DNA from: Escherichia phage 212
Strand: one strand, 5' to 3'
Sequence record: PQ765507
DNA length: 64,000 bases
Positions within the stretch are counted from its first letter, which is position 1. Each line of letters starts with the position of its first letter. This document shows positions 6,951-7,701 of this stretch, piece after piece. The notes beneath the pieces were generated by a model that saw only the letters and a list, made by a program, of their open reading frames with translations, ran no database searches and was not told where the DNA came from. A program made the position numbers and the translations under genes.

Positions 6951-7184
6951 ATGTTAAACTTAATTACAAATGAAAGAGTTACACAGGCATATGGTGACAG
7001 TAATGACGGAATCTATGTCTACAAGGGAGACCGCCGGATTGGTTTCATTACTGACCTGAAGGCCAAATTGTTAAAAGAACTGAAAGCTCAAACAGGTGAT
7101 TCTGGGTTTAGAGCAAGAGCCAAAAAGAAAGATGAACGCCTGGGTGCCAACTCTTTTGGTCCTAGAGGTTACAACCGCTACTAA
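6951..7184 (+). CDS. hypothetical protein, truncated paralog of the downstream alc-like gene
   Basis: 77 aa; residues 9-40 align with the N-terminus of the next ORF (YGDSNDGIYVYKGDRRIGFITDLKAKL vs YGDRHDGIYVYKGSKNVGFLTDLRKKL); RBS GAGGA. Confidence 0.5.
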   Translation: MLNLITNERVTQAYGDSNDGIYVYKGDRRIGFITDLKAKLLKELKAQTGDSGFRARAKKKDERLGANSFGPRGYNRY

Positions 7185-7197
7185 TGAGGAAAATATT

Positions 7198-7701
7198 ATG
7201 AATATGCAACTGATTTCAAATGATATGATTGTTGATGTATATGGTGACCGCCATGACGGAATCTATGTTTATAAAGGTTCCAAAAATGTTGGGTTCCTTA
7301 CTGACTTAAGAAAGAAACTGGCGTCTGATAATAAGTTGAAGGCGAAACAAAAAGAATATCGTGATAAGAAATCAGAAGAGCGGAAAGAAGCCCTTCATGA
7401 ATCTGTTCCCGAAATGGTTGACTTCTTAAAGAACCATTTGGTTAAATATGATGCAGAAGTGTTCATCAATCAGACCCAACCTAATGTGCATATCAATGGA
7501 TGTGTTTGTTATGTTGTGGTTGAACCCCTGACACTTCAACACCGCCTGGGAATTAAACACCCAGTGTTAACCCAGGATGATATGGCGGATGAAGTTGGTA
7601 ATCAGTTCCGCATTTCAACATCTGACAGTACAAATCACATCCTCCTGAATGGTTTATCCCAGGATGATATTGTTGAGGTAATCATCAAGTTATGCAAATA
7701 A
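7198..7701 (+). CDS. alc: Alc-like protein (host transcription unfolding/termination factor), positional ortholog
   Basis: 167 aa from the ATG with RBS GAGGA, same length as T4 Alc; lies between gene 63 and the spanin genes as in T4. Confidence 0.55.
   Translation: MNMQLISNDMIVDVYGDRHDGIYVYKGSKNVGFLTDLRKKLASDNKLKAKQKEYRDKKSEERKEALHESVPEMVDFLKNHLVKYDAEVFINQTQPNVHINGCVCYVVVEPLTLQHRLGIKHPVLTQDDMADEVGNQFRISTSDSTNHILLNGLSQDDIVEVIIKLCK

Follow-up and report, generated by a model that had tools for sequence, protein, structure and literature searches.

Between the rnlA gene and the alc-like gene of Escherichia phage 212 (sequence record PQ765507) lies a short open reading frame (ORF) of 77 codons, the product of which resembles only the N-terminal part of the Alc protein encoded directly downstream. 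This arrangement raises the question of whether the short ORF is a decaying remnant of a duplication or a gene with a function of its own, and what such a gene might do beside a complete alc. The stretch of DNA analysed, referred to below as the window, is 64,000 nucleotides (nt) long. Both ORFs lie at the positions given for them in an earlier reading, made from the letters of the DNA alone (the sequence-only reading), which had described the first as a truncated tandem paralogue of the second:

6951-7184, + strand: short Alc paralogue (alcb of phage SP18; PHROG 17715), 77 amino acids (aa), ATG at 6951, TAA at 7182-7184

7198-7701, + strand: full-length alc (alca of SP18), 167 aa, ATG at 7198

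Comparison of this locus with its relatives indicates that the short ORF is very probably a functional, conserved paralogue, which arose by a local partial duplication of alc.

The similarity of the short ORF to the N-terminus of Alc is well outside chance, with 27 identities over 62 positions (44%), 65% positives and E=3e-16 in a single BLASTP comparison. The shared block by which the relationship had been recognized is correct except for its final part, which is TDLKAKL in the short ORF but TDLRKKL in Alc. Against the Pfam family ALC (PF17527) the short ORF scores 42.5 bits with a cut-off of 25 (E=7e-11) and covers profile positions 3-62 of 177, and the 167-aa ORF scores 171 bits and covers positions 1-176. 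The short ORF further matches PHROG 17715 (“inhibitor of host transcription”, 77 positions) from position 1 to position 77 with E=2.9e-53, as well as the Alc family PHROG 1253 over its first 63 positions. Six residues of the N-domain are invariant among 25 Alc proteins (I6, G16, D20, G21, I22 and G32), and all six are retained in the short protein as I5, G15, D19, G20, I21 and G31. The short protein is 34-48% identical to all Alc N-termini and is about equidistant from them, the resident Alc being at 44%. The full Alc architecture of ~165-170 aa, which consists of an N mini-domain, a long helix and a C-terminal alpha/beta domain, is present in the 167-aa ORF and not in the short one, which has no counterpart of Alc residues ~75-167. 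The short ORF is a domain-level relative of Alc and not a complete Alc.

The short gene is already known at the level of annotation, as alcb and as PHROG 17715. The GenBank record of SP18 names it alcb, “similar to N-terminal region of bacteriophage JS98 Alc”, and names the long gene alca; SP18 alcb (ADO19581.1) is the same gene, with a protein 100% identical to the window copy. The VR7 record lists it as VR7ORF243c, “similar to bacteriophage T4 Alc”, and most other records as “inhibitor of host transcription” or “hypothetical protein”. A literature search found no paper that discusses the short alc copy. What is added here is the derivation of its 3' end from a leader, the selection statistics, the conserved tail motif, a wider and older distribution and the assignment of domains.

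By its sequence the window is assigned to the genus Gaprivervirus (Straboviridae, Tevenvirinae). Over 1.2 kb, the region shares 99.7-99.8% identity with Escherichia phage P479 and Shigella phage SP18, and 33 records show 94-99% identity to it, nearly all of those fetched being Gaprivervirus. The window and 22 fetched relatives make up a set of 23 Gaprivervirus sequences, with 16 distinct nucleotide versions of the short ORF. Absence or a frameshift of the ORF in close isolates would have counted against the sequence-only reading; neither is seen, the ORF being intact and exactly 234 nt (77 aa) long in 23/23. Its 25 variable sites are distributed 5/3/17 over the three codon positions, and the mean ratio of the proportions of nonsynonymous and synonymous differences (pN/pS) is 0.117. 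This cannot be told apart from the values of alc (0.110), the rnlA 3' end (0.098) and pseT.3 (0.102), while the same DNA read in its two other frames yields 1.3 and 9.6. In the last codons (64-77), which encode part of the tail, seven sites vary with no amino-acid change. The amino-acid sequence of the short protein, tail included, is under purifying selection.

More diverged copies are found in three metagenomic contigs of two lineages (L024/L025 and L026), which carry an ALC-family ORF of 77 or 78 aa directly upstream of alc. These short ORFs are 45-49% identical to the short protein of the window and retain the N-domain core and the length. Two tail motifs, GF and, a few residues before the C-terminus, G-[AR]-NSFGP, occur in the window, VR7, L024/L025 and L026 and are absent from Alc; when the tail motifs were sought elsewhere in the window, NSFGP turned up once, by chance, in an ORF unrelated to this one. 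The Alc proteins encoded on these contigs (P0005 and P0006) are the nearest ones outside Gaprivervirus that the metagenomes yielded, at only 78-79% identity.

These data bear on the possibility, raised in the sequence-only reading, that the short ORF is a decaying, non-functional remnant of the duplication. It is indeed a truncated copy, between lineages its product changes at roughly double the rate of Alc (45-49% versus 78-79% identity), and one contig carries a frameshifting deletion of 35 nt. Set against this are the identical length and intactness in all 23 isolates, the pN/pS of 0.12 and the persistence of 77-78 aa and of the motifs in diverged lineages in spite of saturated synonymous sites, and on these grounds decay is rejected. 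The contig with the deletion, a metagenomic one of Gaprivervirus with the only disrupted copy observed, is L029 (European Nucleotide Archive (ENA) ERZ27275844, contig k141_9694; 1330-1435). The lost segment aligns to window 7115-7149, so that the basic segment is removed, the tail is frameshifted and the ORF, with a 75-aa product (P0002), overlaps the alc start. L029 may represent either a naturally occurring variant that lacks the tail or a misassembly.

The short alc gene is confined to a narrow clade. A tblastn search of the phage collection with the short protein matched 633 places in 598 records, and the near-full-length matches came from 34 records, which are the Gaprivervirus group. Among the matches listed, only Gaprivervirus shows two places per record, and the other records show just their alc; in every Gaprivervirus record fetched an end-to-end short ORF stands directly upstream of a full alc. 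When 1.84 billion cluster representatives were searched exhaustively with HMMER, just two clusters of such short proteins were recovered (P0002 and P0034), together with two divergent full-length Alc proteins. Repeat proteins of 645-1414 aa from the same search were rejected as spurious, as their scores are sums of weak hits over 3-12 repeats and unrelated Pfam families matched them as well.

A different kind of truncation is seen in P0039 (63 aa), a metagenome cluster from the HMMER search, and in at least one Tequatrovirus record, BFVD entry A0A3S7GSC5 of Escherichia phage vB_EcoM-G28, where a T4-type alc is frameshifted after residue ~48. Here alc itself is truncated, independently, and no second copy is involved; a possible background is the loss of alc function known from mutants among T4 laboratory strains.

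The AlphaFold model of Alc, built on a 25-sequence alignment, has a predicted local distance difference test score (pLDDT) of 92.7 and a predicted template modelling score (pTM) of 0.70. It comprises an N mini-domain (residues 1-33, with a helix at 8-15 and a beta-hairpin at 23-33), a long helix (34-80) and an alpha/beta C-domain (87-166). In the short protein, the long helix is cut off after its first half and the C-terminal domain is missing altogether. Its own model is confident at residues ~10-45 and falls below a pLDDT of 50 from ~52 onward, and this low-confidence tail agrees with the Gly/Pro-rich tails of the orthologues. The part shared with Alc falls in the small N-domain of the model, and the short protein thus consists of the Alc N mini-domain and a new, basic, probably disordered tail with a conserved end motif, and is devoid of the domain that bears the closest likeness to a DNA reader. 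The two parts are delimited as follows:

6951-7088, + strand: Alc-type N mini-domain and helix start of the short protein, aa ~1-46

7089-7181, + strand: basic Gly/Pro-rich tail of the short protein with GF and G-x-NSFGP, aa ~47-77

The earlier description of the product as a free N-terminal domain holds for the part in which the N-domain is kept, but residues ~47-77 are a remodelled tail with motifs that are conserved among the orthologues and absent from Alc. Compared with Alc of phage T4 (alc/unf; PF17527, PHROG 1253), the short protein is homologous over the first ~60 residues, and its gene occupies the same slot between rnlA and pseT.3/Rz and has the same type of early promoter. It differs in its length of 77 aa, in the missing C-domain, in the tail with GF and G-x-NSFGP and in its co-existence with a complete alc.

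A sequence search for a solved structure of an Alc relative found none. The Alc C-domain shows a weak likeness to the C-terminal “double-wing” DNA-binding domain of T4 MotA (PDB codes 5jlt and 6k4y), with a moderate Z and 10% identity, and the two domains share a fold resemblance only.

The origin of the short gene can be followed in the segments that precede the two ORFs:

6917-6950, + strand: leader copy 1, the 34 nt before the short ORF, with the Shine-Dalgarno (SD) sequence GAGGA at 6939-6943

7164-7197, + strand: leader copy 2, the 34 nt before alc, with the alc SD GAGGA at 7186-7190

The two leaders are identical at 22 of 34 nt in a fixed register, a value beyond the range of a control made with 53 other ORF leaders of the window (mean 10.5, maximum 18). 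The end of the short ORF, with its last six codons (RGYNRY) and the TAA, lies within leader copy 2. As the leaders are alike and the short ORF ends inside the second of them, the duplicated unit was the alc leader together with the 5' part of alc, and the partial tandem duplication proposed in the sequence-only reading remains the best reading. It would have included roughly the first 65-75 codons of alc and would have produced the order promoter, leader, shortened copy, leader and full alc. The diverged relatives have the same geometry, with the stop codon inside the alc SD (TGAGGA) and the leader motif AAACAA...TGAGGAA repeated. A possible microhomology, AATGGTT, shared by the leader and codons 72-74 of alc, agrees with the length of the unit; it comes from a by-eye reading of a short, indel-ridden stretch and is not claimed.

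Alternatively, the 5' fragment of a foreign, T4- or Tequatrovirus-like alc could have recombined in upstream of the resident alc with no local duplication. The short protein is 47-48% identical to T4-type Alc N-termini (64 aligned positions) and 44% to the resident one, and a neighbour-joining tree of the N-terminal ~70 columns (200 bootstraps), in which the short copies form a long branch, sets them beside the T4 group. This grouping, however, has a bootstrap value of 23%. Moreover, the leader of the resident alc is a copy of that of the short ORF, as tandem duplication predicts, and the DGIYVY block is common to the short protein and the resident Alc clade, where T4 reads DGISVF. A foreign origin is therefore considered improbable.

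The local duplication is judged from the sequences to be old and not recent, because synonymous sites are saturated in comparisons of the short copy with alc and of one lineage with another (proportion of synonymous differences, pS, 0.6-0.9) and because the short gene is common to diverged lineages. With synonymous differences saturated (pS 0.62-0.87), no recent gene conversion between the paralogues is visible.

Within the genus, codons 1-62 of alc (7198-7383) are far more diverse than the rest of that gene, with a pS of 0.31 versus 0.08 (window versus L001 and L003-L023). The 5' third of Gaprivervirus alc occurs in two allele classes, MNMQLISNDMIVDVYGD...SKNVGFL and MDMQLISNEMIVNEYGD...TKKIGLM, which are shuffled relative to the alleles of the short ORF, a pattern that suggests breakpoints of recombination lying between these two paralogous stretches.

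The expression signals of the pair begin immediately behind rnlA:

6885-6904, + strand: terminator-like hairpin after rnlA, AAGGGGTGTACAAGCCCCTT followed by a T-rich run, 7 pairs (4 GC) with a loop of 6

6891-6919, + strand: early-type sigma-70 promoter-like site, TGTACA-17-CATAAT, 9/12 matches

The promoter-like site has the same position as GTTTACA...TATAGT before T4 alc, and elements read by eye in the same position occur in contigs L024 (TTTACA-17-TAGTAT) and L026 (GTTTAC...CATAAT). Its activity as an early promoter is inferred from this resemblance to the T4, L024 and L026 elements. Between the short ORF and alc there is no terminator-like site on the + strand, the gap being 13 nt, and the site is probably the ancestral early alc promoter, which would now drive both genes together. 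The short ORF had been credited with its own ribosome-binding site and an early-type promoter. The former is present, as GAGGA stands 7 nt upstream of the ATG in both ORFs; the promoter-like site does lie upstream, but it would be shared by both genes and not private to the short one.

The rnlA hairpin and the promoter-like site overlap, the loop of the hairpin being made up of the -35 hexamer TGTACA. By eye, no equivalent G+C-rich hairpin is found at the promoter-like elements of T4, L024 and L026. An Rfam scan of 6500-8100 gave nothing near any gathering score.

The stop codon of the short ORF overlaps or abuts the SD of alc, in the form of TAATGAGGA in the window and of TGAGGA in L024-L026, and the gap to alc is only 10-13 nt. 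Because this stop sits at the alc SD, the two ORFs are probably translationally coupled. The same features, namely a stop at the alc SD in all lineages and a gap of 10-13 nt, could suit an upstream ORF that acts in cis, setting the translation rate of alc by coupling, with the peptide itself unimportant. Such a role is quite improbable in view of the purifying selection on the protein, which includes the tail and is as strong as in the neighbouring genes, and of the protein motifs and length, which are kept across lineages with saturated synonymous sites.

Several GenBank records (L009, L010, L019, L022 and L023) annotate alc with an N-terminal extension, as a protein of 188-201 aa overlapping the short ORF (window 7096-7197). 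These annotations use GTG or other upstream starts that have no SD and are probably wrong start calls, the likely start being ATG 7198 with GAGGA 7 nt upstream. That the short ORF might be fused to alc by frameshifting was also considered and rejected: the alc frame is open for 37-38 codons upstream in the window and L024 and for only 7 in L026, and the peptide is unconserved.

What the short protein does is best approached through what is known of Alc. T4 Alc is an early product, which terminates elongation by E. coli RNA polymerase (RNAP) on DNA containing unmodified cytosine (dC-DNA) and spares it on modified DNA (PMC2988021, PMC2939025). The paf mutations map to residues R368 and P345/P372 of the RNAP beta subunit, on which T4 Alc depends (PMC2988021, PMC2939025). 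These residues lie near the entrance of the main channel, from where a protein of 19 kDa could read the DNA downstream or the non-template strand (PMC2939025). Alc alone was reported to bind neither DNA nor RNA (PMC2988021). When expressed in E. coli, Alc is toxic or insoluble (PMC8076793).

In the mechanism proposed here, Alc would hold on to RNAP with its N-terminal part and read the DNA with its C-terminal domain, the helix acting as a spacer between the two. The short copy has kept the helix, the beta-hairpin and the start of the long helix and lost the C-terminal domain, while the rest of the helix-coding part has become a basic, Gly/Pro-rich, probably disordered tail ending in G-x-NSFGP. 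Its transcription would be early, from the ancestral alc promoter and on the same mRNA as alc. If the N-domain anchors Alc to a protein partner, most likely the host RNAP beta region defined by the paf mutations, the short protein would be an anchor without a sensor, which occupies or shares the Alc docking site and makes a further contact through its tail. As an outcome, the strength or timing of the Alc stop on cytosine-DNA transcription would be tuned. This particular role as anchor and competitor is offered tentatively and is possible rather than probable. The explanation as a whole, that of an old functional alc paralogue encoding an anchor without a sensor, is the best one found and is given slightly better than an even chance.

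Some observations weigh against this explanation. The neighbour-joining tree, with its bootstrap of 23%, does not settle whether the short copy is nearest to the resident Alc, and later indels blur the exact junction of the duplication. The tail loss in L029 may mean that the tail is dispensable, if it is not an assembly error. A competitor made from the alc mRNA would, moreover, weaken Alc on host and phage DNA alike, and the benefit of this is unclear.

MicroProteins, such as the Id proteins and LITTLE ZIPPER, are regulators derived from truncated paralogues, in which the interaction module is kept and the effector or sensor domain is lost. By analogy, the short protein resembles them in being derived from a larger parent, in the loss of the effector domain and in its likely co-expression with the parent, with the interacting module inferred. 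It differs from them in its conserved new tail, which suggests more than simple titration.

A microProtein-type action could also be directed at Alc itself, with the short protein binding full-length Alc through the shared N-domain and helix and forming hetero-oligomers of altered Alc activity. The short protein retains the N-domain together with the beginning of the 47-residue helix, and long helices commonly mediate oligomerization; the short gene is probably co-expressed with alc and coupled to it in translation, and in L024 the lineage-specific residues GFLSDLR..F are common to both copies. On the other hand, one and the same short protein occurs among the isolates with either of the two diverged allele classes of the Alc N-terminus, with no sign of co-variation, the helix part of the L024 and L026 short proteins is Gly/Pro-rich, making a coiled coil unlikely, and the conserved tail is left unexplained. 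Binding to Alc is accordingly regarded as rather unlikely.

Docking of the short protein on RNAP may also be viewed in the light of the DNA chemistry of the clade. According to two comparative studies, Gaprivervirus is the only Tevenvirinae genus that has alc, denB, denA and dCTPase yet lacks deoxycytidine monophosphate (dCMP) hydroxymethylase (gene 42), and an unknown DNA modification has been suggested for it (PMC8056088, PMC12115623). Consistent with this, tblastn showed no similarity to gene 42 or beta-gt in the two regions searched, the syntenic uvsX-imm-43 locus of SP18 and the window. The short alc copy and the missing 5-hydroxymethylcytosine (hmC) pathway coincide in the same clade, the second short copy being seen only there among the matches listed. 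The short protein on RNAP might be a moderator or specificity factor of Alc, which spares the phage's own non-hmC DNA from Alc termination and is an adaptation to the DNA chemistry of the clade; this proposal is speculative and its chances are low. If true, it would be the first natural separation of the RNAP-anchoring from the DNA-sensing function of Alc.

In SP18, the interval between uvsX and imm, which in T4 holds segA, beta-gt and gene 42, contains two small hypothetical ORFs of 176 and 47 aa. This interval lies at positions 4131-5027 of locus L028 (SP18 19000-33000).

The interest of the short gene lies in the fact that a natural N-terminal module under long selection shows that this portion of Alc functions autonomously. 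The short protein is a ready-made reagent for asking whether the Alc N-domain alone binds RNAP at the paf site and whether it competes with Alc, and its presence in the one Tevenvirinae genus reported to lack hmC synthesis may bear on how these phages protect their own transcription. It is a useful handle on the old question of the Alc mechanism and otherwise an annotated gene in a known phage group.

The neighbourhood of the pair follows the T4-type order denA, rnlA, alc, pseT.3/pseT.2 (spanins), a small ORF and pseT, and the extra 77-aa ORF between rnlA and alc is the only difference from T4 there. Both alc-family ORFs sit between rnlA and the Rz-like spanin gene, which is the conserved position of the Alc family in T4-like genomes. 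The flanking genes are:

5743-6879: rnlA

7692-8045 and 8042-8332: spanin genes pseT.3 (Rz-like) and pseT.2

8799-9704: pseT

The place of T4 pseT.1, between the spanin genes and pseT, is taken by an ORF of 112 aa (8464-8802; PHROG 2364). The best sigma-70-like match of the region, TTTACA-17-TATAAT (11/12), stands directly before it (window 8437-8802). On the - strand, an ORF of 254 aa (9618-10382) overlaps the 3' end of pseT by ~87 nt. Its position matches that of SP18gp235 in SP18, annotated as “putative site-specific intron-like DNA endonuclease”, and it is likely to be a free-standing homing endonuclease.
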